Virus record (IMG/VR): IMGVR_UViG_2778261570_000007
Location: 1-15,215 of that record
Reading direction: 5' to 3' (one strand)
From: a virus
Taxonomy: Duplodnaviria > Heunggongvirae > Uroviricota > Caudoviricetes
DNA: 15,215 nucleotides
Made by a program: the position numbers and the translations under genes. Shown piece after piece: positions 1,393 to 15,215 of this stretch. Position 1 is the stretch's first letter; the number at the start of each line of letters is the position of its first letter. The notes under the pieces were generated by a model, which did not search any database, was not told the DNA's origin, and was given only the letters and a program-made list of their open reading frames with translations.

Positions 1393-1941
1393 GTGAAGGT
1401 TAACAAAAAGAAACTGGCGGAAATTTTTGAGTGCGATGTCAGAACAATCACTGGCTGGCAAAGTCAGGGGCTGAGAGTTTTGTCGGGGGGAGGCAAAGGT
1501 ATCGAAGCCATGTTCAATACTGCAGAAGCCATTGAGTGGTATGCGCAGCGGGAAAAAGATATCGAAAACGAAAAGCTCCGCAAAGAACTGGAAGATTTGC
1601 GTGCGACTGCAGAATCAGATTTACAACCCGGCACCATTGACTATGAACGCTACCGGTTAACCAAAGCACAGGCTGACGCACAGGAGCTGAAAAATGCCCG
1701 TGAAGAAGGGCTGGTGCTGGAAACGGAATTGTTTACCTTCATTCTGCAACGTGTGGCACAGGAGATTTCGGGGATACTTGTACGTGTGCCGCTGACATTA
1801 CAGCGTAAATATCCGGATATTTCACCGTCACACCTTGATGTGGTGAAAACTGAAATCGCGAAAGCCTCCAATGTTGCAGCTAAAGCCGGTGAAAACGTGG
1901 GCAGGTGGATTGATGATTTCAGACGCACAGAAGGCAGCTAA
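1393..1941 (+). CDS. nu1: Terminase small subunit (lambda Nu1 family)
   Basis: GTG start with gagga SD upstream. The N-terminus [70 protein letters not shown] closely parallels lambda Nu1 (MEVNKKQLADIF...GGGKG...ENEKLRREVEELR). It sits immediately downstream of cosB. Confidence 0.9.
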
Positions 1942-3829
1942 TGCAGCCGGTGCGATAGCTACAGGGCTTTTATCTCTCAATATTCCGGTTCCACTGACGA
2001 CAGTTCAGTGGGCTGATAAACATTATTATCTGCCGAAAGAATCTTCATATACCCCCGGACAATGGGAAACCCTGCCGTTTCAGGTTGCCATTATGAACAG
2101 CATGGGAAATGACCGGATCCGCACCGTTAATCTGATTAAATCGGCGCGCGTTGGTTACACCAAAATGCTGTTGGGGGTGGAGGCTTATTTTATTGAGCAT
2201 AAATCCCGTAACAGTCTGCTTTTTCAGCCAACAGATTCTGCTGCAGAAGATTTCATGAAATCTCATGTTGAGCCCACGATAAGGGATGTCCCTGCATTGC
2301 TGGAGCTGGCTCCATGGTTCGGAAGAAAGCACCGCGATAATACACTCACCCTGAAGCGTTTTTCCTCCGGTGTGGGTTTCTGGTGCCTTGGCGGCGCCGC
2401 TGCTAAAAACTACCGTGAAAAATCTGTGGATGTGGTCTGCTATGACGAACTCTCCTCGTTTGAACCGGATGTGGAAAAAGAAGGTTCGCCGACGCTGCTT
2501 GGCGATAAGCGTATCGAAGGCTCGGTATGGCCTAAATCCATACGTGGCTCAACGCCAAAAATTAAAGGCACCTGCCAGATTGAGAAAGCCGCAAATGAAT
2601 CAGCGCATTTCATGCGGTTTTATGTCCCTTGCCCTCATTGCGGGGAGGCCCAGTATCTGAAGTTTGGCGATGATGCGACGCCATTTGGCCTGAAATGGGA
2701 GAAGGGTAAACCGGAAACGGTGTATTACCTGTGTGAACATAATGGCTGTGTGATCCGGCAGTCGGAACTTGACCAGACCGACGGGCGCTGGATTTGTGAC
2801 AATACCGGGATGTGGACGCGCGACGGCCTGGCATTTTACAGCGCCGGCGATGAGGAGATGCCACCGCCGCGCTCCGTCACTTTCCACATCTGGACGGCGT
2901 ACAGTCCGTTCACCACCTGGGTACAGATTGTTTATGACTGGCTGGATGCGCTGAAGGATCCGAACGGTGTTAAGACGTTTATTAACACCACGCTCGGGGA
3001 GCCCTATGAAGAGGCCGTGGCAGAAAAACTGAGCTTTGAGTTGTTGCTGGAAAAAGTCTGCCACTATGGCGCGCAGGTTCCCCTGCGGGTGGTTTACCTG
3101 ACCGCAGGGATCGACTCCCAGAAAGATCGCTATGAAATTTATGTCTGGGGCTGGGCTCCCGGCGAAGAAGCCTTTCTGATTGATAAGCAAATTATCATGG
3201 GGCGACCGGAAGACGAGGACACCCTTAAACGTGTTGATACGGTGATCCGGAAAAAATATCGTCATGCTGACGGTACTGAAATTTCCATTTCCCGTGTCTG
3301 CTGGGATACCGGTGGTATCGACCAGGACATTGTGTATCAGCGTTCCAGGAAACACGGCACTTTTTTTGTGCTTCCCATAAAAGGGGCATCGGTGTACGGC
3401 AAGCCGGTGATCACCATGCCCAAAAAGCGCAACCAGCGTGGTGTGTTTTTGTGTGAGGTGGGCTCCGATACCGTCAAGGAAATGCTGTACGCCCGTTTTG
3501 CCCTGCCGGTGGTCTCTGCCAGTGAAGCCGCCCCGTATACCTTCCGTTTTCCGGATAACCCCGACATTTTTTCGGAAGAAGAGGCGCGTCAGATCGTGGC
3601 GGAAGAGCTGGTGGAGAAGGTGGTTAATGGCAGGGTGAAACTGCTGTGGGATAAAAAAGGGCGACGCAACGAAGCCCTCGACTGCCTGGTATATGCCTAT
3701 GCTGCCCTGCGTATTTCAGTTCAGCGGTGGCAGCTGGATCTTGAAGCACTGGCCCGTGCCAGAAGAGATGAGCAGGACGACGATGAGATGAGTCTGGAAG
3801 AAATCGCGGCTGCACTGAGTGGAGGATAA
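1913..3829 (+). CDS. A: Terminase large subunit (lambda gpA family; ATPase and endonuclease)
   Basis: Long colinear similarity to lambda gpA, for example [25 protein letters not shown], a P-loop-like [54 protein letters not shown] and [20 protein letters not shown] prefer the ATG at 1913 (aggtgg SD at 1903-1908; about 29-nt overlap with Nu1, similar to lambda) over the tracked 1871 start. Confidence 0.92.
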
Positions 3830-3832
3830 AGA

Positions 3833-4042
3833 ATGGTTTATACGCATGAAATGCTTTGTGATGCCCGACGGGCATTACATGAACTGATGATCGGACGTGC
3901 TGTGGTTTCCGTCAGCAAGGACGGGCGTCAGGTTCAGTATTCGCGGGCGACGATTGGTGAACTGCGTCAGTATATTGAAGAGCTGGAAAGTGCGCTGGGT
4001 GTATCCGGACGGCGTCGCGGCCCGGCAGGAGTGGGGCTGTGA
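3833..4042 (+). CDS. W: Head completion / DNA stabilisation protein (lambda gpW family)
   Basis: 69 aa with a ggagga SD. ARRALHELMIGRAVVSVSKDGRQVQYSRATIGELRQYIEELE...RRRGPAG parallels lambda W (AARAALHDLMTGKRV..QKDGRRV...YIAELE...RRRGPAG). Confidence 0.85.
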   Translation: MVYTHEMLCDARRALHELMIGRAVVSVSKDGRQVQYSRATIGELRQYIEELESALGVSGRRRGPAGVGL

Positions 4043-5610
4043 ACAGGGAACTGGTGGATCTTCACGGGCAGCCACTGCGGCAGAGTATGGGGTATTCCGG
4101 AGGGGGTACCGGATTTGGCGGGCAGCTTGCGGAATGGTTGCCTGCACCGGAAAGTGCCGACGTGGCGCTCTTACCTTCCATTCAGCTGGGTAACGCCCGT
4201 GCGGATGATCTGGTCCGTAACAACGGTATTGCCGCAAATGCAGTGGAAATTCATAAAGACCATATCGTCGGGCACATGTTTCGTCTGAGCTACCGGCCCA
4301 ACTGGCGCTGGCTGGGGATGTCGGAAGCTGATTCGCATGCCTTTATTGAAGATGTGGAGGCGGCGTGGATGGAATATTGCGATCCGGTGTTTGGTTCGAT
4401 GGATGTGGAAGGGCGTCGCTCGTTTACCGAATTTATTCGTGAAGGGGTGGGGGTCCATACGTTTAACGGTGAAATTTTTGTCCAGCCCGTATGGGATACG
4501 GAATCCACGTCATTATTCAGAACAAAATTCAAGACCATCAGTCCGAAGCGCGTCAGCACGCCCGGTTATGGTACCGGCGATCGTTTTATGCGTGCCGGAG
4601 TGGAAATCAACCGTTACGGAAAGGCGATGGCTTATCATGTTCAGGACGATGACTGGCCTGGTTACGGTGTCAGCAACTGGACACGGATTGCGGCGACGCT
4701 GCCCTCCGGGCGACCGGGAATGATCCATGTGTTTCAGCCGCAGGAGGACGGACAGACGCGCGGGGCCAACCAGTTTTATTCCGTGATGGAGCGCCTCAAG
4801 ATGCTCGACACACTGCAGGCCACGCAACTGCAGTCGGCGGTGGTGCGGGCGATGTATGCCGCGACGATTGAATCCACTCTGGATTCAGAAAAAGCATTTG
4901 AATATATCGCCGGGGTGGGAGATGGCGGTAAAAATCCCCTGAACACCATCATGAAAGGCTACGCGCGTTATTACGCCACCAATACGGTAAAGCTGGGCGG
5001 GGTCCGTATTCCGCATCTTTATCCGGGGGATTCACTGAATCTGCAGACAGCGCAGAATGCAGATAATGGTTTCTCTGAACTGGAAAAGGCGCTGTTACGT
5101 TACATTGCTGCCGGGCTGGGGGTGTCCTATGAACAGCTTTCCCGTGATTATTCACAGGTCAGTTATTCCAGTGCCAGGGCATCCGCCAATGAGTCGTGGC
5201 GGTATTTTATGGGCAAACGAAAATTTGTGGCCAGCCGACTGGCATCACAGATGTTTGCCTGCTGGCTGGAGGAAGCTCTTATTCGCGGTGTGATCCGCCC
5301 GCCGAAATCCCGTTTTTCATTCTGGGAGGCCCGTTCCGGATGGTGTCGTGCCGAGTGGATTGGTGCCGGTCGCATGGCGATTGATGGCCTTAAGGAAGTG
5401 CAGGAGGCGGTGATGCGTATTGAAGGTGGCCTGAGCACGTACGAGAAAGAGCTGGCCCTGATGGGCGATGACTATCAGGAGATTTTCCGCCAGCAACTGC
5501 GTGAAAGCCAGGAGCGACAGGCAGCGGGTCTTCCCCGCCCCATCTGGATAAAGGACACGTTTCAGCAGCAGATCCGACAGACAACGGGAGAAAATGGCGA
5601 TGCGTCGTAA
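4039..5610 (+). CDS. B: Portal protein (lambda gpB family)
   Basis: GTG start overlapping the W stop by 4 nt, as in lambda. Extensive similarity to lambda gpB, for example GNARADDLVRNNG, FNGEIFVQPVWDT, GQTRGANQFYSVMERLKMLDTLQATQLQSA, LRYIAAGLGVSYEQLSR and MAIDGLKEVQEAVMRIEGGLSTYEKE. Confidence 0.92.
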   Translation: MNRELVDLHGQPLRQSMGYSGGGTGFGGQLAEWLPAPESADVALLPSIQLGNARADDLVRNNGIAANAVEIHKDHIVGHMFRLSYRPNWRWLGMSEADSHAFIEDVEAAWMEYCDPVFGSMDVEGRRSFTEFIREGVGVHTFNGEIFVQPVWDTESTSLFRTKFKTISPKRVSTPGYGTGDRFMRAGVEINRYGKAMAYHVQDDDWPGYGVSNWTRIAATLPSGRPGMIHVFQPQEDGQTRGANQFYSVMERLKMLDTLQATQLQSAVVRAMYAATIESTLDSEKAFEYIAGVGDGGKNPLNTIMKGYARYYATNTVKLGGVRIPHLYPGDSLNLQTAQNADNGFSELEKALLRYIAAGLGVSYEQLSRDYSQVSYSSARASANESWRYFMGKRKFVASRLASQMFACWLEEALIRGVIRPPKSRFSFWEARSGWCRAEWIGAGRMAIDGLKEVQEAVMRIEGGLSTYEKELALMGDDYQEIFRQQLRESQERQAAGLPRPIWIKDTFQQQIRQTTGENGDAS

Positions 5611-7216
5611 TTTATCGCATATTGCCGCCATGGCATTTAATGAGCCGCTTTTACTGGAACCCGCCTATGCGCGGGTTTTCTTTTGCGCGCTGGGTAAAGA
5701 GATGGGAGCCGGCAGCCTTGCCGTTCCTCAGCAGGCTGTTCAGCTTGATGCTGATGGTATGCAACTGGCTGTGACTGACTATATGGCGGGCGGTCAGCGT
5801 CCGGCAAAGAGTTACCAGGTGAAGAATGGCATCGCCATTCTTCCGGTGAGCGGCACGCTGGTGCATAAACTGGGTACCCTGCGGCCTTACTCCGGCATGA
5901 CTGGCTATGACGGCCTGACGGCCCGCCTTCAGATGGCGGTGAATGATCCGGATGTGCGCGGCATTTTGCTGGATATCGACAGCCCGGGCGGTCAGGCTGC
6001 CGGGGCGTTTGACTGTGCTGACATGATTTACCGTCTGCGGGAACAGAAGCCCGTGTGGGCGCTGTGTAATGACATGGCCTGTTCAGCCGCCATGTTGCTG
6101 GCGGCAGCCTGTACCCGTCGGCTGGTCACGCAGACGGCAAAAATTGGTTCGATTGGCGTGATGATGGCGCACACCAGTTACGAGAAACAACTGGCACAGG
6201 AAGGGGTGGACATCACGCTGATTTACTCCGGGCAGCATAAGGTTGACGGCAACAGTATTCAGGCATTGCCGGCAGGTGTGCGTGCAGATTTTCAGCGCCG
6301 TATTGATGAGGCCCGCCGGATGTTTGTCGACAAGGTGGCGCTTTATACGGGGCTGAGTTCAGAGGCGGTGATGAATACCGAGGCTGCCGTTTATGACGGT
6401 CAGGCAGGCATTGATGCAGGCCTGGCTGATCAACTGATTAATGCTGCAGATGCCGTTGAAGTGATGGTTTCTGCACTGAATGACTCTGTTACGAAGGAGA
6501 ATACAATGACTGTTAAAAATCTCACCGTTGCTGAAGCGGTGGCCCAGGAAAATCAGCGCGTGATGGGGATCCTGAATTGTCAGGAGGCGAAAGGGCGCGA
6601 GCAACTGGCGCAAATGCTGGCAGGTCAGCCAGGAATGACGGTTGAGCAGGCGAAAACGTTGCTTGCAGCTGCGCCGGTTGCCGGTACTGACAGCACGGGC
6701 GATCAGATTATGGGGCTGCCGGAAGCAAAGGGGCGTGAGCAACTGGCACAGATGCTGGCAGGTCAGCCGGGGATGACGGTGGAGCAGGCGAAAGCGTTTC
6801 TGGCGGCAGCCCCTGCTGCTGGTGCTGCAGGCACAGGCGATCAGATTATGGCGTTACCGGAAGCAAAAGGGCGTGAACAACTCGCGCAGGCGCTGGCTGA
6901 ACAGCCGGGAATGACCGTTGACCAGGCCAAAACGTTACTGGCGGCGGCACCGGTTGCGGGTTCTGCAAGTGTCGGCGATCAGATTATGGCGCTGCCGGAG
7001 GCAAAAGGGCGCGAGCAACTTGCACAGGCACTGACAGAACAACCGGGAATGACGGTGGCGCAGGCGAAAACGCTGCTGGCAGCCGCGCCGGCGGCATCGC
7101 AACCGTCACAGGAAACACTTTTTGATCGCTTTATGGCACAGCATGCTGCCAGTGCGGTTTCCGGTGGCGGAACTGCCGGGCGCGGGGAGGAAGACCTGCT
7201 GATGAGTATGCCGTAA
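5594..7216 (+). CDS. C: Capsid maturation protease (S49/ClpP-like, lambda gpC family) with an expanded C-terminal scaffold domain
   Basis: Overlaps B by 17 nt. The N-terminus HIAAMAFNEPLLLEPAYARVFFCAL matches lambda C (HIASMAFNEPLMLEPAYARVFFCAL). Protease-core motifs include PYSGMTGY, ILLDIDSPGG, VWALCNDMACSAA and RRLVTQTAKIGSIGVMMAH. At 540 aa it is about 100 aa longer than lambda C because of internal tandem repeats. Confidence 0.9.
   Translation: MAMRRNLSHIAAMAFNEPLLLEPAYARVFFCALGKEMGAGSLAVPQQAVQLDADGMQLAVTDYMAGGQRPAKSYQVKNGIAILPVSGTLVHKLGTLRPYSGMTGYDGLTARLQMAVNDPDVRGILLDIDSPGGQAAGAFDCADMIYRLREQKPVWALCNDMACSAAMLLAAACTRRLVTQTAKIGSIGVMMAHTSYEKQLAQEGVDITLIYSGQHKVDGNSIQALPAGVRADFQRRIDEARRMFVDKVALYTGLSSEAVMNTEAAVYDGQAGIDAGLADQLINAADAVEVMVSALNDSVTKENTMTVKNLTVAEAVAQENQRVMGILNCQEAKGREQLAQMLAGQPGMTVEQAKTLLAAAPVAGTDSTGDQIMGLPEAKGREQLAQMLAGQPGMTVEQAKAFLAAAPAAGAAGTGDQIMALPEAKGREQLAQALAEQPGMTVDQAKTLLAAAPVAGSASVGDQIMALPEAKGREQLAQALTEQPGMTVAQAKTLLAAAPAASQPSQETLFDRFMAQHAASAVSGGGTAGRGEEDLLMSMP
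6506..7216 (+). CDS. nu3: Putative Nu3-like scaffolding protein from an internal in-frame start within C
   Basis: A strong SD aaggaga (6494-6500) precedes an in-frame ATG at 6506 (MTVKNLTVAEAVAQENQRVMGILNC...). In lambda, Nu3 is nested in-frame in the 3' part of C. Internal initiation here is inferred, not demonstrated. Confidence 0.5.
   Translation: MTVKNLTVAEAVAQENQRVMGILNCQEAKGREQLAQMLAGQPGMTVEQAKTLLAAAPVAGTDSTGDQIMGLPEAKGREQLAQMLAGQPGMTVEQAKAFLAAAPAAGAAGTGDQIMALPEAKGREQLAQALAEQPGMTVDQAKTLLAAAPVAGSASVGDQIMALPEAKGREQLAQALTEQPGMTVAQAKTLLAAAPAASQPSQETLFDRFMAQHAASAVSGGGTAGRGEEDLLMSMP
6584..7135 (+). repeat. In-frame tandem repeat, four copies of 138 bp (46 aa), inside the C/Nu3 coding region
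   Basis: Unit starts at 6584, 6722, 6860 and 6998 (period exactly 138 nt). Each encodes about EAKGREQLAQMLAGQPGMTVEQAKTLLAAAPVAG-x6-GDQIMALP. Copies differ by point substitutions and the last copy diverges at its 3' end. Confidence 0.85.
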
Positions 7217-7254
7217 GCGATATCCGGAATTCAGATAAATCAGGAGGCTGAAAA

Positions 7255-7590
7255 ATGATTAAAACCACCACGGAAAAGCGTGCAGATGTGCGCATTTTTG
7301 CCGGAAGCGATCCGGCGCATACCGCAACAGCCACCAGTGGTATCAGTGCTGCCACACCTGCACTGACGCCACTGATGGTGGATGACGCCACCGGAAAACT
7401 GGTTGTCTGGGATGGTCAGAAAGCCGGAACGGCTGTGGGTGTGCTGGCTCTGGCGCTTGCCGGGACCGAGCCCATGCTGACGTACTACAAAAGCGGTACG
7501 TTTGCCACTGAGTCGCTGGTCTGGCCTGGTTCGGTGGATGCGGTGAAAAAAGCCAACGCATTTGTGGGAAGTGCCATCAGCCACGCCTGA
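7255..7590 (+). CDS. D: Head decoration protein (lambda gpD family)
   Basis: 111 aa with a caggagg SD. [38 protein letters not shown]...[15 protein letters not shown]...AFVGSAIS parallels lambda gpD ([27 protein letters not shown]...KLVAWDG...FYKSGTF...AFAGTAIS). Confidence 0.9.
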   Translation: [111 protein letters not shown]

Positions 7591-7612
7591 TGGTGAAGTG
7601 ATTAACTGAAAA

Positions 7613-7642
7613 AACGGGTCGCGATGCGGCCCGTTTGTGTTT
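7613..7642 (+). terminator. Stem-loop with U-rich tail between D and E (candidate partial terminator or mRNA-stabilising hairpin)
   Basis: aacgggtcgc (7613-7622), loop gat, gcggcccgtt (7626-7635): a 10-bp stem including one G-U pair, followed by tgtgttt. It lies 18-47 nt upstream of the E start. Confidence 0.4.
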
Positions 7643-7659
7643 CTGAAGGAAAATAAATT

Positions 7660-8688
7660 ATGGGGTTATTTACCACGCGTCAGTTACTCGGGTACACCGA
7701 GCAGAAAGTGAAATTTCGTGCGCTGTTTCTGGAGCTGTTCTTTCGTCGCACGATCACTTTCCATACTCAGGAAGTCATGCTGGATAAAATTACCGGCAAA
7801 ACACCGGTTGCAGCGTATGTGTCTCCGGTGGTGTCAGGCAAAGTGCTGCGCAGCCGTGGTGGTGAAACCCGTGTGTTACGTCCCGGTTATGTAAAACCAA
7901 AACACCGCTTTGATTATCAGCAGGCAGTGGAACGTCTTCCGGGAGAAGATCCGGCCCGCCTTAATGACCCGGCTTACCGCCGTCTGCGTATTCTGACGGA
8001 CAACCTGAAACAGGAAGAGCAGGCGATTGTGCAGGTGGAAGAAATGCAGGCAGTCAGTGCTGTTCTGCAGGGTAAATACACTATGAGCGGCGAGCAGTTT
8101 GAGACGGTGGAAGTGGATTTTGGGCGTTCTGCCGCCAATAACATTACGCAGGCTGGCGGACGCGAATGGTCAAAGCAGAATGCTGACACCTTTGATCCGA
8201 CGCATGATCTTGATGCGTACTGCGATTTTGCTTCCGGTACCATCAATATCGCGATTATGGACGGCACGGTCTGGCGTATGCTGAACGGTTTTAAACTGTT
8301 CCGTGAAAAACTGGATACCCGCCGTGGCTCCAAATCTGAGCTGGAAACCGCACTGAAAGACCTGGGGTCCGTGGTTTCCTTTAAGGGCTGGTACGGCGAT
8401 CTGGCTGTCGTGGTGGCGAAGACAACGTATGTTGACGAAAACGGGGATGAACAGCGTTATCTGCCGGAAGGCACACTGATTCTGGGAAATACCCAGGCGG
8501 AAGGCGTCCGTTGCTATGGCGCAATCCAGGATAATCAGGCGCTGAGTGAAGGGATCACCTCTGCGATTCGTTATCCGAAACACTGGGAGGAAGTGGGGGA
8601 TCCTGGTTGCGAATATACCATGACGCAGTCTGCGCCGTTGATGGTGCTGCCGGATCCGGATGCGTTTGTGGTGGTTCAGGTGAAATAA
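7660..8688 (+). CDS. E: Major capsid protein (lambda gpE family)
   Basis: 342 aa (lambda E is 341). Extensive colinear similarity: YVSPVVSGKVLRSRGG, PGYVKPKH, EDPARLNDPAYRRLRI, AIVQVEEMQAVSAVLQGKYTMSGEQF, NNITQAGGREWSK, KLDTRRGSKSELETALKDLG, LGNTQAEG and TMTQSAPLMVLPDPDAFVVVQ. Confidence 0.93.
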   Translation: MGLFTTRQLLGYTEQKVKFRALFLELFFRRTITFHTQEVMLDKITGKTPVAAYVSPVVSGKVLRSRGGETRVLRPGYVKPKHRFDYQQAVERLPGEDPARLNDPAYRRLRILTDNLKQEEQAIVQVEEMQAVSAVLQGKYTMSGEQFETVEVDFGRSAANNITQAGGREWSKQNADTFDPTHDLDAYCDFASGTINIAIMDGTVWRMLNGFKLFREKLDTRRGSKSELETALKDLGSVVSFKGWYGDLAVVVAKTTYVDENGDEQRYLPEGTLILGNTQAEGVRCYGAIQDNQALSEGITSAIRYPKHWEEVGDPGCEYTMTQSAPLMVLPDPDAFVVVQVK

Positions 8689-8693
8689 GACAG

Positions 8694-8719
8694 GGCGGGA
8701 TATTCCCGCCTTTTTCTTT
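8694..8719 (+). terminator. Rho-independent terminator-like hairpin immediately after E
   Basis: ggcggga (8694-8700), loop tat, tcccgcc (8704-8710): a perfect 7-bp GC-rich stem followed by tttttcttt (8711-8719). Confidence 0.7.
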
Positions 8720-8738
8720 AGCGCACGGGAGAGATGTG

Positions 8739-9104
8739 ATGACAAAAGAGCAGATGACTAAACGTTTGCAGGAACTGGCAGTGATTCTGGGGCGTGAAGC
8801 AGATATTTCAGGTTCAAAAGCCGATCTTGAGCAGCGTCTGGCGGAATGGGAGGAGGAGGCCGCTGGATTCGATGGGGAGGAGACGGGGAAGGAAGAGGTG
8901 GGCAACGATGCATCCGGCGACGGAATGCATTCTGAGCAGGGACTCGCCCGGGTGCGTATGCTGAAAACGGCGCATATGCCAGCCTGTGATGCTGTGACGG
9001 GAAAAATGTTGATGTTTGCCCGGGCCTCCAGTGTTGTGCTGGTTAATGAAGCCGCAGTTCCTGCGTTGCTGGCAGACGGTCTGGCAGAAAAAATCCGGGA
9101 GTGA
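8739..9104 (+). CDS. FI: DNA packaging / head assembly protein (lambda gpFI family)
   Basis: ATG at 8739 with a gggagag SD, in frame with tracked ORF 8607..9104. The N-terminus MTKEQMTKRLQELAVILGREADISGSKADLEQRLAEWEEE resembles lambda FI (MTKDELIARLRSLGEQL...GTKEEL..RVAELKEE). The middle is acidic and the C-terminal domain hydrophobic, as in FI. Confidence 0.75.
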   Translation: MTKEQMTKRLQELAVILGREADISGSKADLEQRLAEWEEEAAGFDGEETGKEEVGNDASGDGMHSEQGLARVRMLKTAHMPACDAVTGKMLMFARASSVVLVNEAAVPALLADGLAEKIRE

Positions 9105-9508
9105 TGATGTTCGATAATCTGTTCGATCAGGCCATGAGTGATGCGGATGACATCATCCTGGATACGATGGGGACGGAAATCAGCATATATCCGGGCGGCA
9201 CGGAAAGAAAAATCCGTGCCGTTTTTGATGCCCCGGCAGATAACACCGGGATGAACACTGGCAGCGGCGAAATTCGTGATACTGCGCCCGTGTTATTTAC
9301 CCGGAGCGCATGGGCCGCCGGTCTGAAAAAATATGACAGGGTCATGATCCACGGCGAACCCTATCAGGTAGTCGATCCCGGCTGGGATGAGTCAGGCGCT
9401 GCGGGTCAGGGGGTGATTACCATCACCCTTGCGCGTGGAGAGCCCGGGAGAAATACACCTGCTGCACCGGAACGACCGAGTAAACGTTATGGCAGTCAGA
9501 GAGCATGA
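9104..9508 (+). CDS. FII: Head-tail connector protein (lambda gpFII family)
   Basis: MMFDNLFDQAMSDADDIILDTMGTEISI...AVFDAP...PVLFTRS...GLKKYDRVMIHGE parallels lambda FII (MADFDNLFDAAIARADETIRGYMGTSATI...GVFDDP...PSLFVRTDE...LRRGDTLTIGEE). The start overlaps the FI stop. The exact start (GTG 9101, ATG 9104 or ATG 9107) is uncertain. Confidence 0.8.
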   Translation: MMFDNLFDQAMSDADDIILDTMGTEISIYPGGTERKIRAVFDAPADNTGMNTGSGEIRDTAPVLFTRSAWAAGLKKYDRVMIHGEPYQVVDPGWDESGAAGQGVITITLARGEPGRNTPAAPERPSKRYGSQRA

Positions 9509-10211
9509 ACGAAGCAGTGCCCGGCAGCGACGGCTGGCACGAAACCTCGTTGTCGATATTGATGAAGATGAGGTGCTGAAAATTATCGCTAAACTGGGTG
9601 GGTCAAAAAGTCAGATCCGTAAAGCCTGGGGCGTGGCGCTGAAAAGAGCCGCGTCTGCACTGCGGATGAAGGCTATGGCAGAGTTTAAAAAACAGGTTGC
9701 CCCACGCAGTCAGAAAATGATCAAAAAGCGTGTTCTGCATAATTTTATCATTCGTCGTAACGGTGATGAGTTTGATGAGGCGAAGGTATGGTTCGGTCTG
9801 AACGCCATCAAAGTACGCGATCTGCGCGGACGCATCAGTGGGGGACGACGCGGCGAACGCCATCAGTTGCGCGATGAGCGGGGGCGTTTTGCACCAGCTT
9901 CCAGCCGCAGGAAGGCTCGGGAGATCAGTTTTAAACCTGCCGGGGAATCCCTGCCTGTCACCGCCTGGTCAACGGATGATGCCTTTATCAACCAGTTCGA
10001 AGCGGAAAATCGTAACGGACGTATATCAAAAAGGAAAACGATACTGATCCGACAGGCATCCGGACGACGGAGGGTGCGTGAAGCGGAAATTGATATTTAT
10101 GAAGCCATGCTGAACCGTATAGAGGATTTTGTTTTTCCGGATGCGGAAGCACTGATCCTGAAAAATTTTGAGCATGAACTGAAATTCCGGGTATTTAAGG
10201 GGCTGGAGTGA
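9489..10211 (+). CDS. Putative tail-completion protein, possibly lambda gpZ-like (basic, about 240-260 aa)
   Basis: Sits where lambda has Z (after FII, before U). Highly basic composition with Z-like segments (KRAASALRMKAMAEFKKQV...; AKVWFGLNAIKVRDLRG versus lambda Z ARIKVNRGDLPVIKLGN). The similarity is weak and from memory. The start is uncertain (tracked ATG 9429 overlaps FII by 80 nt; the in-frame ATG at 9489 has a poor SD). Confidence 0.4.
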   Translation: MAVREHERSSARQRRLARNLVVDIDEDEVLKIIAKLGGSKSQIRKAWGVALKRAASALRMKAMAEFKKQVAPRSQKMIKKRVLHNFIIRRNGDEFDEAKVWFGLNAIKVRDLRGRISGGRRGERHQLRDERGRFAPASSRRKAREISFKPAGESLPVTAWSTDDAFINQFEAENRNGRISKRKTILIRQASGRRRVREAEIDIYEAMLNRIEDFVFPDAEALILKNFEHELKFRVFKGLE

Positions 10212-10774
10212 TGGAGCCATTGATGATGGGAGCCTGGCATCAGGCGGTGATTGACAGTCTGAAACAAATTCCCTGGGTGGAAGATGCCGATGAGTACCCG
10301 GAAAAAGTGACGCAACTGGTGACGCCTGCCGTGTTTGTGGATGTGCCCGGCTGGGACAAGGCTCAGTTTGCCGACGGGCAGACGCGGGTCACGCTGAAAT
10401 GCGATCTGTTTGTGGTGACTGACCGGGCCGGGAAGACGGAGAACGTGCCAAAACCGCAGATATTTGCCCGCTGTCTGGCAATGGATTTATCTGACTGGAT
10501 TGATGGAGCCACGTTCGGGCTGGATAACGTTTACCCGGCTGTTTTTATCGATGCTGAGGTGGATACCTTCGACCGGCTGCTGGACGACTACATCGTTTTC
10601 CGTGTCTCTTTCGAACAGGACATTCCGGTCGGCGAAGATCCGTTTGCAGTTCAGGCAGGTGCGCCGTTACAGGAAGTCTGGCTGGGTAAAGTACCGGAAA
10701 CCGGTAAAAAGCATGTGCAGGATTATCGTCTTATCTGGAAAGCGGAGGGCACCGGCGATGAGTCTGGCGGATGA
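10211..10774 (+). CDS. Putative tail terminator / tail-completion protein, possibly lambda gpU-like, with a C-terminal extension
   Basis: Lies after the Z-like gene, where lambda has U. AVIDSLKQ...PAVFVDVPG...TRVTLKCDLFVV loosely parallels lambda U (AAVLDALEK...PAVAVYLTG...ELHIEVFL). The start overlaps the upstream stop (GTG 10208 / ATG 10211). At 187 aa it is longer than lambda U (131 aa). Confidence 0.45.
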   Translation: MEPLMMGAWHQAVIDSLKQIPWVEDADEYPEKVTQLVTPAVFVDVPGWDKAQFADGQTRVTLKCDLFVVTDRAGKTENVPKPQIFARCLAMDLSDWIDGATFGLDNVYPAVFIDAEVDTFDRLLDDYIVFRVSFEQDIPVGEDPFAVQAGAPLQEVWLGKVPETGKKHVQDYRLIWKAEGTGDESGG

Positions 10775-11381
10775 AGTGGCTGAGTTACGCCGCAGGGTGG
10801 CGGACATGGTCCGTCGCGGCGTGGTGGAAGTGGTGATCCCGGGTAGCCCGGTGATGGTCCGGGTGGATATCGGAGATGTGCTTTCGCCGCCGTTGCCCTG
10901 GATTCAGGTGCAGTCCGGGCGTTACATGCAGGTCAGTAATTACCCGGCACCAGGAGATGCGGTCACGGTGATATCGGAGGCAGGTGATCTGCGTAATGGT
11001 CGGGTGTATCCGGGGGCCAACATTGACGCGATTCCGGTACCGGCGGGCAGTGAACACGAGCATGTTATTTTGTTTGATACCGGAACGGAGATCCGTTACG
11101 ACCGCAAGGCTAATGCCCTGTCCATCACGCTGGCTGAAGGCGGCAGCTATAAAATCACCGGCAGGGGAATGCTTGACGGTCCGGTGGAAATCACGGATAC
11201 CCTGACTGTGCAGGGAAAAACGAAGATTAATGCCGATACGCAGGTTCTGGGCAATATCGGTGCCTCACAGGAGATCACCGACAAAACCGGTAGCATGAGT
11301 AAAATTCGCGAAATTTATAATACTCATGATCACCCTGGCGACAGCGGGGGAACCACCCGTAAACCTAACCAGGAAATGTGA
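10758..11381 (+). CDS. V: Baseplate assembly / spike protein (P2 gpV family)
   Basis: ATG at 10758 with a ggaggg SD, overlapping the upstream stop by 17 nt. The N-terminus MSLADEVAELRRRVADMVRRGVV parallels P2 V (NIQELARALRNMIRTGII). The C-terminal NTHDHPGDSGGTT matches the P2 V motif HTHKHPGDSGGTT. The tracked ORF 10464..11381 contains this frame. Confidence 0.85.
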   Translation: MSLADEVAELRRRVADMVRRGVVEVVIPGSPVMVRVDIGDVLSPPLPWIQVQSGRYMQVSNYPAPGDAVTVISEAGDLRNGRVYPGANIDAIPVPAGSEHEHVILFDTGTEIRYDRKANALSITLAEGGSYKITGRGMLDGPVEITDTLTVQGKTKINADTQVLGNIGASQEITDKTGSMSKIREIYNTHDHPGDSGGTTRKPNQEM

Positions 11382-11402
11382 ACGCCGCACCGGCGTTTTT
11401 TT
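11382..11402 (+). terminator. Terminator-like hairpin with T-run between V and W (candidate attenuator)
   Basis: acgccg (11382-11387), loop cac, cggcgt (11391-11396), followed by a 7-T run (11396-11402). The next gene starts at 11415 without an obvious SD. Confidence 0.4.
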
Positions 11403-11414
11403 CGGAAAAATTTC

Positions 11415-11771
11415 ATGATTGGTATTGATTCCGCCACTGGCAGATATCTGCACGGTAACGAACATCTGCGTCAGTCCGTCACCGATATTTTATCAACACC
11501 GGTCGGCAGCCGGGTACTTCTCAGGGAATACGGCAGCAGGTTGTTCAGTCTGCTTGATAACCCGCAGGATGATTTTACGCGGGTGAGGATTGTCCGTGAA
11601 ACGGCAACCGCCCTTGAACGCTGGGAGCCCCGCCTGACCCTCCGGCGGGTGGAGGTGACGTGGACAGGAGAAGGAAGCGCCTGGCTGACGCTTGTCGGGG
11701 TGAACAACGAAACACAGGAAACGATTCGACTCGAGGAGATAAAAATTGGCAGCATCTCAGGCCATTATTGA
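11415..11771 (+). CDS. W: Baseplate wedge protein (P2 gpW / T4 gp25-like family)
   Basis: 118 aa. SVTDILSTPVGSRVLLREYGSRLFSLLDNPQ...ALERWEPRLTL parallels P2 W (SIGDILRTPVGSRVMRRDYGSLLASMIDQPQ...KWEPRVTL). Confidence 0.85.
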   Translation: MIGIDSATGRYLHGNEHLRQSVTDILSTPVGSRVLLREYGSRLFSLLDNPQDDFTRVRIVRETATALERWEPRLTLRRVEVTWTGEGSAWLTLVGVNNETQETIRLEEIKIGSISGHY

Positions 11772-12660
11772 TCTGTCCGCGATACCTGTACCGGATGCGG
11801 TGGAGGTGCCGGACACCGCTGTACTGGTCACTCAGATAGTGGCGAAATATCAGGAACTGGACACGTTGTTTTCGGCCCTGGTGGAATCTGATCCCGCGTA
11901 TAAATGGGCAGAGGCGCTGGCTTTTCGGGTGGCGCTGATGCGCCAGCAGATAAATGATGCTGTCCGTGCTGTACTGCTTGCCAGTGCCGGTGGGAGCGAT
12001 CTGGATCAGGTTGGCGCGAATTATCAGGTTCAGCGGCTGGTCATTACCCCGGCAGACGACAGCACCATTCCGCCCACGCCGGCGGTGTATGAACATGATG
12101 ACGCTTTTCGCGAACGTATCCAGTTGTCGTGGGCACGGCTCAGCACCGCCGGCGCGAAAAATGCGTATCACTATTTTGCACAAAGTGCTGATCCTGATGT
12201 GCTGGATGTGAAGGCTTACGGGCCGGAAACGCATTCGCAGGAAGGTCGGGTTTTTCTTTATGTGTTATCCCGCTCCGGAAATGGCACTGCACCACAACCC
12301 CTGCTGGATAAGGTGGCAGCATCAGTCAGTGATGATGAAACCCGTCCCCTGACGGATTTTGTCAGTGTCCGGACGGCAGAAATTATTCCCTACGATGTGG
12401 TGGCGGATATTCATATTCCCTACGGACTGGATGGTGAACTGGTTATGTCAAATGCCCGCAAGGCGCTGCAGTCATACACTGACAGCGTCCACCGGATTGG
12501 CTCGGTGGCATCCCGTTCCGGCATGGATGGTGCCCTTCACCAGACCGGGGTGATTACGGTGAATCTGACCTCTCCGGGCAGTGATATCGTTCCTGCGATG
12601 GGGCAGGCACCGTGGTGCCGTAAGGTAACGCTGAATAAGGTGGAGACAACTGATGAATGA
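11746..12660 (+). CDS. J: Baseplate assembly protein (P2 gpJ family)
   Basis: TTG start at 11746 preceded by a gaggag SD (11733-11738). IIDLSAIPVPDAV, LDQVGANYQVQRLVITPADDSTIPPTPAV and a C-terminal ...TTDE parallel P2 J (IIDLNQLPAPDVV, LDVIGANYNTTRLTITPADDSTIPPTPAV, ...GGSDE). Confidence 0.88.
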   Translation: MAASQAIIDLSAIPVPDAVEVPDTAVLVTQIVAKYQELDTLFSALVESDPAYKWAEALAFRVALMRQQINDAVRAVLLASAGGSDLDQVGANYQVQRLVITPADDSTIPPTPAVYEHDDAFRERIQLSWARLSTAGAKNAYHYFAQSADPDVLDVKAYGPETHSQEGRVFLYVLSRSGNGTAPQPLLDKVAASVSDDETRPLTDFVSVRTAEIIPYDVVADIHIPYGLDGELVMSNARKALQSYTDSVHRIGSVASRSGMDGALHQTGVITVNLTSPGSDIVPAMGQAPWCRKVTLNKVETTDE

Positions 12661-13243
12661 CGATATCAGGAGCATACTGCCGGTCAGTGCCAGCCGGGCA
12701 GAGCGGGTGGTGGACTGTGTCTCCGGAGATATGCTGTCAGACATAGCGGTCTGCCTGATCCGCTATGTGAAAAATCCCGATTTATGCCCTGCTGAATTGC
12801 TGCCATGGCTGGCCTGGGAAATGGCGGTGGATACCTGGAATGAACACTGGACGGAGACGGAAAAAAGGTCTGCGATAAAACGTGCTGCTTACATCCACCG
12901 ACACAGAGGGACTAAAGCGGCGCTGATGGCATCGCTGGCTGACAGTCCCTTCCGGTCGCAGATTGTTGAGTGGTATGAGCAGACCCCGCCCGGGGAGCCG
13001 TATACCTTTCGTCTGAACGTGGAACAGAAGGATTTACCGGTGCTGATGAATGATCATCAGGATCTTAAGCATGCGGTGCTCCGTGCCAAAAATCTGCGCA
13101 GCTGGTTCAGTATTCACGTTTACGGGAACAGCACAGGGCGTGGATTTGGTTACGGCTATGTGATGGCGACAGAAAAAATCAGAAGTACTGGTGTGACAAC
13201 AAAGACAGTGCCCACAGGCGGGCAGAGTGAGGCAGGTGTATGA
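12653..13243 (+). CDS. I: Baseplate / tail protein (P2 gpI family)
   Basis: NPDLCPAELLPWLAWEMAVDTWNEHWTETEKRSAIKRAAYIHRHRGTKAAL...EWYEQTPPGEPYTFRL parallels P2 I (NPDTCPANLLPWLAWAFSVDRWDEKWPEATKRAVIRDAYFIHCHKGTIGAV...EWWENSDPPGTFRL). Overlaps J by 8 nt. Confidence 0.85.
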   Translation: MNDDIRSILPVSASRAERVVDCVSGDMLSDIAVCLIRYVKNPDLCPAELLPWLAWEMAVDTWNEHWTETEKRSAIKRAAYIHRHRGTKAALMASLADSPFRSQIVEWYEQTPPGEPYTFRLNVEQKDLPVLMNDHQDLKHAVLRAKNLRSWFSIHVYGNSTGRGFGYGYVMATEKIRSTGVTTKTVPTGGQSEAGV

Positions 13244-14499
13244 ATGGACTGATTCTGACAACGTCCGGCGCTGCAGAAATTGAAGCAGCATATCAGAACG
13301 GGCAAACCGTGACCGTCCGGCATGTTCTGCTTGGTGACGGGGGCGGGCGGGCATTGCCATCCACGCCGGATGAAATGGCAGCAATGACATCGTTGTACGG
13401 CGAATTCGGGCAGGAACCCTTTTCCGACGGTGCGATGGAGGAGGGCTTCATCAGCGGGGATATTGTGATTGACTGTAAATCATACCCCGGTAAAACCCTT
13501 CGTGAACTGGGGATGATCAGCGACAGAGGTACGCTTATCGCGTACGGACGTTATCCCGACACCTTTTTACCAGACCAGACGGACTCCGTTATCAAGGAAG
13601 TTATTCTGACGCTGGTTCTTGGGCTGACGCACGCACAAAACGTGGTGCTGGAAGTTGATCCGGACAGGGCCATTATTACTCAGGAAATCGGAGACAGACG
13701 CTATCTGCAACGAAAAAAGAATCTTTCGGATGTGGAAGACAAGGATGAGGCTGTTGAAAACCTCGGATTAAAACCCACGGTGGACAAGGCAAAAAATGCC
13801 GTTCAGCGTGATGGTGACACCATGACCGGGGAGCTGAAAATCCGTGGTGTTAATGCGCTGAGGATTTTCAACGAAGCCTTTGGCCTGATTTTTCGTCGTT
13901 CGGAAGAGTGCCTGCACCTTATTCCAACACAGGAAAACCAGGGTGAAAATGGCGATATTGGTCCACTTCGCCCGTTCACTATTAATCTGCGGACGGGTGA
14001 AATATCCATGTCGCATAAAGTGTCTGTTGGTGGCGGTTCTCAGGTGAATGGTGCGCTGGGTATCGGCGTTCAGAATGCCCTGGGCGGAAACTCAATTGCT
14101 TTCGGGGATAACGATACCGGCCTGAAACAGAATGGTGATGGCCTGCTGGATGTTTATGCCAATGGTCAGCACGTATTCCGTTTTCAGAATGGCGCGTTAC
14201 AAAGTAACCGGGCGGTGAACGTTACTGGGCGGGTAACACCGTCAGACTACGGAAACTTTGATGCCCGTTACCAGACCAAAACAGGCGGCGTGCAGGATGT
14301 GCGTTATGGTTCCGAAATGTATTACAACCCGGGAGGTAACGAGATAACCTGGACGTTTCGCTCACCTTCAGGCCACGGATTATCCGGTATTTATGTGCAG
14401 GATACCGGAAGAAGTTCGGCAGATAACATTGGTGGTGTGTATTACAGACCGCTTCAGAAACTGATTAACGGCACCTGGTATAACGTGGCGAGTGTTTAA
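13240..14499 (+). CDS. H: Tail fibre protein (P2 gpH family), short form
   Basis: The N-terminus (TTSGAAEIEAA...VTVRHVLLGDGGG) and the C-terminal region (KAKNAVQRDGDTMTGEL; NALGGNSIAFGDNDTGLKQNGDGLLDVYANGQHVFRFQNG; GNFDARY; YRPLQKLINGTWYNVASV) parallel P2 H (NAVQKNGDTLSGGL; NALGGSSIVLGDNDTGFKQNGDGILDVYANSQRVFRFQNG; FRPIQKYINGTWYNVAQV). At 419 aa it is much shorter than P2 H as I recall it. Confidence 0.85.
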   Translation: MNGLILTTSGAAEIEAAYQNGQTVTVRHVLLGDGGGRALPSTPDEMAAMTSLYGEFGQEPFSDGAMEEGFISGDIVIDCKSYPGKTLRELGMISDRGTLIAYGRYPDTFLPDQTDSVIKEVILTLVLGLTHAQNVVLEVDPDRAIITQEIGDRRYLQRKKNLSDVEDKDEAVENLGLKPTVDKAKNAVQRDGDTMTGELKIRGVNALRIFNEAFGLIFRRSEECLHLIPTQENQGENGDIGPLRPFTINLRTGEISMSHKVSVGGGSQVNGALGIGVQNALGGNSIAFGDNDTGLKQNGDGLLDVYANGQHVFRFQNGALQSNRAVNVTGRVTPSDYGNFDARYQTKTGGVQDVRYGSEMYYNPGGNEITWTFRSPSGHGLSGIYVQDTGRSSADNIGGVYYRPLQKLINGTWYNVASV

Positions 14500-14501
14500 C
14501 A

Positions 14502-15044
14502 ATGTTGCATTTAAAAAATATTACTGCAGGCAATCCGAAAACCGCAGAACAATATCAGATGACAAAACAACATGGTATCACCTGGCTTTTTTCGGAAGAT
14601 GACAAAAACTGGTATGAAGAACAGAAGAACTTTGCCAGTGACACCATAAAAATGGTTTACACCGGAGACGGGCGCGTGGTGTGGGTCGGTAAGGATGTGA
14701 CAGGCATTGAACCCCGTAACGCCAGTGTTATTGAAGTTCCTGATATTACCGCTAATCGCCGTATTACCGTGCCTGGTTACTGGTTTTACCGCAACGATAA
14801 ATTTGTCTTCGACTACAAACTAAAAGCGGAAGATGAGCGCGATGCTCTGTTAAAACAGGTCAGCATCATGACCAGCGAATGGGAAAAAGACCTGCTGCTG
14901 GGATTAATCAGTGACGAAGACAGGGGGAAGCTGAAAGCGTACCGCATTTACGCGAAATCGCTGCAGGCGATGGATTTCAGCGCTATTACGGATAAGCCCA
15001 CTTACAACAATATTAGCTGGCCTGAACAGCCACAAAATACCTGA
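14502..15044 (+). CDS. G: Tail fibre assembly chaperone (P2 gpG / Tfa family)
   Basis: MLHLKNITAGNPKTAEQYQMTK...WLFSEDDKNWYEEQKNFASDTIKMVY...VIEVPDITANRR parallels P2 G ([22 protein letters not shown]...[26 protein letters not shown]...VVEVPDITSNRR). Starts 3 nt after the H stop. Confidence 0.88.
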   Translation: MLHLKNITAGNPKTAEQYQMTKQHGITWLFSEDDKNWYEEQKNFASDTIKMVYTGDGRVVWVGKDVTGIEPRNASVIEVPDITANRRITVPGYWFYRNDKFVFDYKLKAEDERDALLKQVSIMTSEWEKDLLLGLISDEDRGKLKAYRIYAKSLQAMDFSAITDKPTYNNISWPEQPQNT

Positions 15045-15063
15045 AAAAGAAGTTAATCATCTG

Positions 15064-15086
15064 ACCGCCTGAGGGCGGTTTTTTTA
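15064..15086 (+). terminator. Rho-independent terminator after the tail fibre assembly gene
   Basis: accgcc (15064-15069), loop tgag, ggcggt (15074-15079), followed by a 7-T run (15079-15085), about 20 nt after the G stop. Confidence 0.7.
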
Positions 15087-15098
15087 TGGGAGAAATGT

Positions 15099-15164
15099 AT
15101 GTCCGGATTACATGGTGTTGAAACCATTGAACTGACGACAGGCACGGTTGCCGTGCAGACGTAA
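15099..15164 (+). pseudogene. Tail sheath-like N-terminal fragment (21 codons then TAA)
   Basis: ATG at 15099 with a gggag SD (15088-15092). MSGLHGVETIELTTGTVAVQT* resembles the N-terminus of the P2 FI sheath (MSDYHHGVQVLEINEGTRVISTV...) but ends at TAA 15162-15164. The remaining 51 nt in any frame do not look like sheath sequence. Confidence 0.35.
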
Positions 15165-15215
15165 GCGGCTCGTCAGAACCGTATTGATATTTACTGAGAG
15201 CTCAGATCAACTTTC

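Follow-up and report, generated by a model that had tools for sequence, protein, structure and literature searches.

The gene at the center of this analysis belongs with the contractile tail sheath genes of P2-like phages, such as FI of phage P2, which codes for a tail sheath protein of 396 aa. Prophages that combine a lambda-type head with a P2-type tail are common in E. coli, their P2-type sheath gene is of a well-known class, and the ISCro1-like insertion sequences, which are widespread in E. coli chromosomes and plasmids, are likewise a class already well known. The target duplication of IS66 is 8 bp long (PMC6778807), and ISCro1 in the afa region of ST131 has a length of 2,824 bp (PMC8764528). 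More than half of the IS copies of C. rodentium are located on other mobile elements (PMC3072379). Based on the comparison of the whole 15,215-nt stretch of DNA analyzed here (hereafter the window) with related loci, we propose that transposition of an IS66-family element has very probably interrupted the sheath gene of an E. coli lambdoid prophage at codon 21. Such an event resembles the prophage inactivation mediated by IS elements in IS-rich enterobacterial genomes, in that the gene hit by a mobile element is a late one, essential to the resident prophage. A literature search for IS-disrupted tail sheath genes found none.

Positions 1393-15044 of the window are a mosaic, in which a lambda-type packaging and head module (Nu1, gpA, gpW, portal, S49 protease, and D, E, FI and FII-like proteins) is joined directly to a P2-type module for the baseplate, the fibers and the contractile tail. 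As regards the starts of the baseplate genes, the 305-aa mechanical ORF at 10464-11381, which opens with TTG, over-extends the baseplate V gene, for which the gene annotated in the relatives has 207 aa and corresponds to 10758-11381; the start codon of the baseplate J gene is TTG. The features at the far end of the window are the following:

14502-15044, plus strand: tail fiber assembly gene (P2 gpG-like, 180 aa), taken from the ORF list; the last intact gene ahead of the break
15063-15085, plus strand: terminator-like hairpin GACCGCC-TGAG-GGCGGTT with a T-run, read from the sequence and found by a hairpin scan
15088-15093, plus strand: Shine-Dalgarno sequence GGGAGA of the sheath gene, with its GGAG core at 15089-15092, 6 nt before the ATG at 15099
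15099 (ATG) to 15162-15164 (TAA), plus strand: short ORF of 21 residues, reading MSGLHGVETIELTTGTVAVQT
15099-15160, plus strand: tail sheath remnant, comprising codons 1-20 and the first two bases of codon 21; equivalent to positions 4100-4161 of locus L001 and 13354-13415 of locus L018
15153-15160, no strand: predicted target-site duplication GTGCAGAC, based on the 8-bp duplications around full copies of the element and on PMC6778807; the window contains the left flank only
15161-15215, minus strand: tnpC-proximal end of an IS66-family (ISCro1-like) element with its transposase genes on the minus strand, at 55/55 identity
about 15161-15182, minus strand: terminal inverted repeat of the element, starting GTAAGCGGCTCG
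15191-15215, minus strand: last 7 codons and stop of the IS gene tnpC (KVDLSSQ*), translating to the same C-terminus as that annotated for the ISCro1-family TnpC of locus L002

The initial annotation had described an ORF led by a Shine-Dalgarno sequence after the terminator of the G-like gene, with a TAA at 15162, and this description is confirmed by the sequence. The protein encoded by the fiber-assembly gene upstream carries the Caudo_TAP domain (PF02413) and recurs in identical form on 44 blocks of public contigs, the gene being labeled 'tail fiber assembly protein' in complete genomes. According to the scan, the hairpin that separates this gene from the sheath gene has a stem of 7 pairs, 5 of them G-C, a loop of 4 nt and a T-tail; it is unchanged in the intact relatives, the window being 100% identical there to L018, a draft E. 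coli contig (GCA_012247405.1). A scan of the whole window at the Rfam gathering thresholds gave no matches, and hence no explanation of the locus by an RNA element.

Comparison with the relatives revealed a sharp boundary within the sheath gene. The whole window is colinear with about 70 complete E. coli genomes at 95-98%, only up to 15160. Over its last 1.2 kb, 52 complete E. coli genomes match across at least 80% of the length, and among the matches listed all end at 15160; homology to the 21 compared loci also ends exactly at this position. As homology to every relative stops at the same base, we regard the break as no chance feature. The closest of these relatives, L018, is 100.000% identical to window positions 1746-15160, with 0 mismatches over 13,415 nt, and a second contig, L017, shows a single mismatch in the same comparison. 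In both of them the 491-aa sheath gene is uninterrupted and is followed by the tube gene and the remaining tail module. Furthermore, in the complete genomes the ATG equivalent to 15099 is the start of a 1,476-nt gene with the annotation tail sheath protein, after which come the genes for the tube, an assembly chaperone, the tape measure, gpU, gpX and gpD. The same 491-aa gene, with the Phage_sheath_1 (PF04984) and Phage_sheath_1C (PF17482) domains, was recovered on 20/20 draft contigs carrying an identical fiber-assembly or baseplate J protein, a count to be read in the light of exact-protein look-ups, which favor contigs with long flanks, merge look-alikes and surfaced intact-sheath contigs only.

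All 21 residues of the window ORF (21/21) equal residues 1-21 of the 491-aa sheath of L018. Codon 21 specifies Thr in either case: the intact gene has ACC there and the window ACG, whose G comes from the inserted DNA. The sheath start in the window is also syntenic with that of the relatives, lying after the fiber-assembly gene and ahead of the position of the tube gene. Judged by this sequence evidence, the ATG at 15099 is the true start of the 491-aa contractile tail sheath gene. The window ORF stops before any domain, the sheath domains (Phage_sheath_1 and the C-terminal domain) being present only in the intact relatives; it is a fragment of a sheath gene and no functional member of the sheath family. 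A point nonsense mutation or a frameshift was rejected as the source of the stop, which lies in foreign DNA, identity to the intact genes being perfect up to the breakpoint. The reading of the short frame as an upstream ORF or leader peptide ahead of a full-length sheath gene further downstream, which the initial annotation had held out as an alternative and which its good Shine-Dalgarno sequence and clean 21 codons might recommend, has a negligible probability and was rejected, since these residues are those with which the sheath itself begins, translation from the same ATG continues to 491 aa in all relatives, the short ORF and its stop are conserved in none of the related loci, and the stop codon itself is IS DNA.

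The claim of the initial annotation that the ORF begins like a P2 FI sheath was borne out with the intact protein: residues 5-36 of the intact sheath align with residues 6-37 of P2 FI with 16/32 identities (E = 2e-7, from one pairwise comparison only). The N-terminal arm is thus homologous in the two proteins, at 50% identity, and the genes share their placement after fiber assembly and before the tube. The C-terminal 350 residues of the intact relative's sheath are 37% identical to P2 FI. Between this FI-like body and the conserved N-terminal arm, the intact relative's sheath (L018, 13354-14829), which at 491 aa compares with 396 aa for P2 FI, has an extra segment of ~110 residues (about 37-145). 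The closest phage sheath to the intact 491-aa protein is that of Hafnia phage yong2, at 63% identity. Compared with a sheath of the P2 FI type, the window has only 20 codons left.

The initial annotation had further noted that what follows the stop is unlike sheath in any frame, and this DNA now has an identity. Positions 15161-15215 match 261 E. coli records at 55/55 bases (E = 9e-20), in which the annotated copies place the 55-nt sequence at the edge of a unit named 'IS66-like element ISCro1 family' that contains tnpA, tnpB and tnpC, adjoining the 3' end of tnpC. The gene order in full copies is tnpA-tnpB-tnpC, of which the window covers only the last 7 codons and stop of tnpC. This IS end occurs in 1,614 of the 5,426 complete E. 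coli genomes, in up to 25 copies per genome, with one third of the copies on plasmids; such abundance is the signature of a mobile element.

To define the IS boundary, two full copies with unrelated flanks were compared, one in a lambdoid lysis region and the other between ybbP and rhsD. Their shared sequence starts exactly at the G of GTAAGCGGCTCG and has a length of 2,699 bp; its ends are the imperfect inverted repeats GTAAGCGGCTC and GTAACCGGCTC, with the common form GTAA(G/C)CGGCTC, and the end away from tnpC is GTAACCGGCTCATTTAAACCGT in reverse complement. A GTAA start is reportedly a hallmark of the IS66 family. A repeat scan missed these terminal repeats because they are imperfect, and they were seen by direct comparison of the two copies. 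One 8-bp direct repeat flanks each copy (GAATCTAA and TTTGTTGA). The window from 15161 reads GTAAGCGGCTCGTCAGAACCGT, so that a terminal repeat of the IS66 type (GTAAGCG / GTAA...) is present in it at the exact element boundary, and the G at 15161 is the first base that does not match the intact sheath gene. Over the visible part, which is one end only, the window thus resembles the ISCro1-like elements in its identical terminal 55 nt, in the GTAAGCG terminus and in a tnpC C-terminus placed 30 nt inside the end, and shows no difference from them. The ISCro1 copy of ST131 is 2,824 bp long (PMC8764528), as against 2,699 bp in the two copies measured here, which bear the NCBI label 'ISCro1 family'; ISCro1 is used here as this NCBI family label, and the exact ISfinder name is uncertain.

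The initial annotation had called for alignment with the intact sheath genes of related prophages and for a search for IS ends. The former gives identity up to 15160, beyond which the gene continues intact in L018, and the latter yields the IS66-family terminus at 15161-15215. Of its suggestion that the truncation marks an insertion or deletion junction, the insertion half has stood, as the break at 15160/15161 falls precisely on an IS66-family terminus and an isogenic uninterrupted copy exists; the deletion half did not gain the same footing. The breakpoint, the identity of the DNA on both its sides and the isogenic uninterrupted allele are matters of observation. Neither the IS end nor the probable contig-end nature of the window edge had figured in the initial annotation.

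The element faces the start of the sheath gene with its tnpC end, and its genes run against the late operon. The TAA at 15162-15164 corresponds to bases 2-4 of the IS terminus GTAAGCG, which puts this stop in frame right after the last sheath-derived bases and so yields the 21-residue peptide. We infer that the IS is of full length, flanked by the 8-bp duplication GTGCAGAC and then by the rest of the sheath gene. The far junction would accordingly be predicted to read from the IS left end, ...AAATGAGCCGGTTAC, into GTGCAGAC and then CATCTCCACGGCAGTGATTGG..., a simple insertion predicting that CATCTCCACGGCAGTG... comes directly after GTGCAGAC at the far IS end. That the insertion is a simple one of this kind, with the rest of the sheath gene on the far side, we consider likely. 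It is apparently very recent, because identity to the intact copy is perfect over 13.4 kb.

Exact-pattern scans of species-representative genomes, JGI metagenomes and IMG/VR gave 0 hits for the left junction as observed (GTTGCCGTGCAGACGTAAGCGGCTCGTC) and 0 for the right junction as predicted (GAGCCGGTTACGTGCAGACCATCTCCAC). Likewise, none of the 5,426 complete E. coli genomes spans 15160/15161, and the predicted right junction is absent from them too. The insertion site is private to the source of this prophage among all the collections searched, and in this it differs from IS-mediated prophage decay as otherwise described.

An alternative is that, following a simple insertion or in place of one, recombination with another IS copy deleted or inverted DNA, such that 15160 is the true edge of a prophage remnant; we regard this larger rearrangement, under which the tail genes and the remainder of the sheath gene would be absent or elsewhere, as unlikely. 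Room for such an event is left by the window, which does not reach the far side of the IS, and by the predicted right junction, for which no collection searched gave a match, and an IS end present up to 25 times per genome offers ample substrate for recombination. A precedent is also at hand: homologous recombination between IS66 copies has caused the loss of a large segment, after which the 8-bp flanks no longer matched (PMC6778807). Against this, the 0 differences from the intact prophage over 13.4 kb point to a very recent event, for which a single transposition is the simplest account, and a failure to find the right junction in the databases is to be expected anyway, because they lack the left one too. 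The more specific version, in which the IS is the scar of a deletion or inversion that removed or moved the tail genes from sheath to gpD, strikes us as rather improbable. If it were true, the prophage would be able to lyse cells and to package DNA into tail-less heads, and the remnant could be kept by the host or be complemented by another P2-type tail module in the cell.

As only 55 nt of the element are visible, they might conceivably represent a solitary IS end or a truncated IS fragment and not the edge of a complete element. Such remnants are common in enterobacterial genomes, as seen in C. rodentium, where they account for 34/113 IS copies (PMC3072379). However, these 55 bases match active-looking full copies at 100% identity and the prophage DNA next to them is undiverged, with which a fresh transposition of a whole element fits better, and we therefore hold a fragment to be very unlikely.

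A window that ends exactly 55 nt past the IS boundary also deserves comment in its own right. When a contig in a de Bruijn assembly passes through a unique junction into multi-copy sequence, it is terminated at the first k-mer with all of its bases in the repeat; for short reads, 55 is a standard choice of largest k. Because the edge falls exactly 55 nt into the repeat, it suggests that the window end is the end of a short-read draft contig at the first 55-mer wholly inside the repeat. The window start lies in small ORFs of the lysis region; over its first ~250 nt it shows a similarity of about 82% to many other lambdoid prophages, a 64-nt stretch (2-65) being 95% identical in at least one genome among the matches listed, and it is possibly a second repeat-limited contig end. 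Contig or window edges that fall at a fixed k-mer length into a repeat are thus not to be over-interpreted. Short-read assemblies are fragile at precisely such places, and this could be taken to mean that the join of sheath and IS is chimeric, the gene being intact in the organism. We consider an artefact of this kind highly improbable: the join is located, to the exact base, where the IS naturally ends (GTAAGCG...), as that of a random chimera would not be, and a contig that runs through the unique junction and ends at the first all-repeat k-mer is what a true insertion would be expected to give.

Returning to the transposition of an IS66-family element into codon 21, its consequences would begin with the sheath itself. 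An IS of ~2.7 kb would stand between the ribosome-binding site with the first 20 codons and the remainder of the coding sequence, and no sheath is expected to be made. The N-terminal arm of the sheath in contractile tails takes part in the inter-subunit mesh, and therefore even a restart product would probably be defective. Furthermore, transcription of the downstream genes for the tube, the chaperone, the tape measure, gpU, gpX and gpD would probably be lowered. The insertion of ISCro1 upstream of the adjacent afaA reduced afaA transcription in ST131 (PMC8764528), a precedent that fits a polar effect of the IS in the sheath gene. The prophage would keep its lysis, packaging, head and baseplate genes but should form no infectious particles.

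Several observations concern the wider prophage family. In the complete genome E41, the end of the prophage adjoins a tRNA-Ser gene and the hya operon. Its copy of the same prophage carries an insertion of the IS5-like ISKpn26 in the early region (L025, 4286-5266), plus two pseudogenes, and we see in this IS5-like insertion an independent sign of IS erosion in the family. As to the fibers, the tail fiber and fiber-assembly DNA at window positions 14240-14996 has 94.6% identity to 'Actinobacillus phage vB_Apl-pPE4' (PP818812) and about 93% to the Stx phage phiP27, which suggests either an exchange of the fiber module or an odd host label on the Actinobacillus phage record. The relatives have a second fiber locus after gpD (L015, 19260-20915; L025, 35005-37739), comprising a phage_tail_N protein with collagen-like repeats and a DUF4376 protein, and the intact phage thus seems to encode two fiber sets.

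In terms of annotation, the proper label for the 21-codon ORF is that of a sheath pseudogene fragment interrupted by an IS of the IS66 family, and the prophage is to be scored as defective despite an otherwise complete and undiverged structural module. Prophages are well known to decay through IS insertions in their genes, and the event is in itself ordinary, of a kind already known, raising no new biological question. Its perfect identity to the intact copy makes this prophage a clean example of the first step in IS-driven prophage inactivation.
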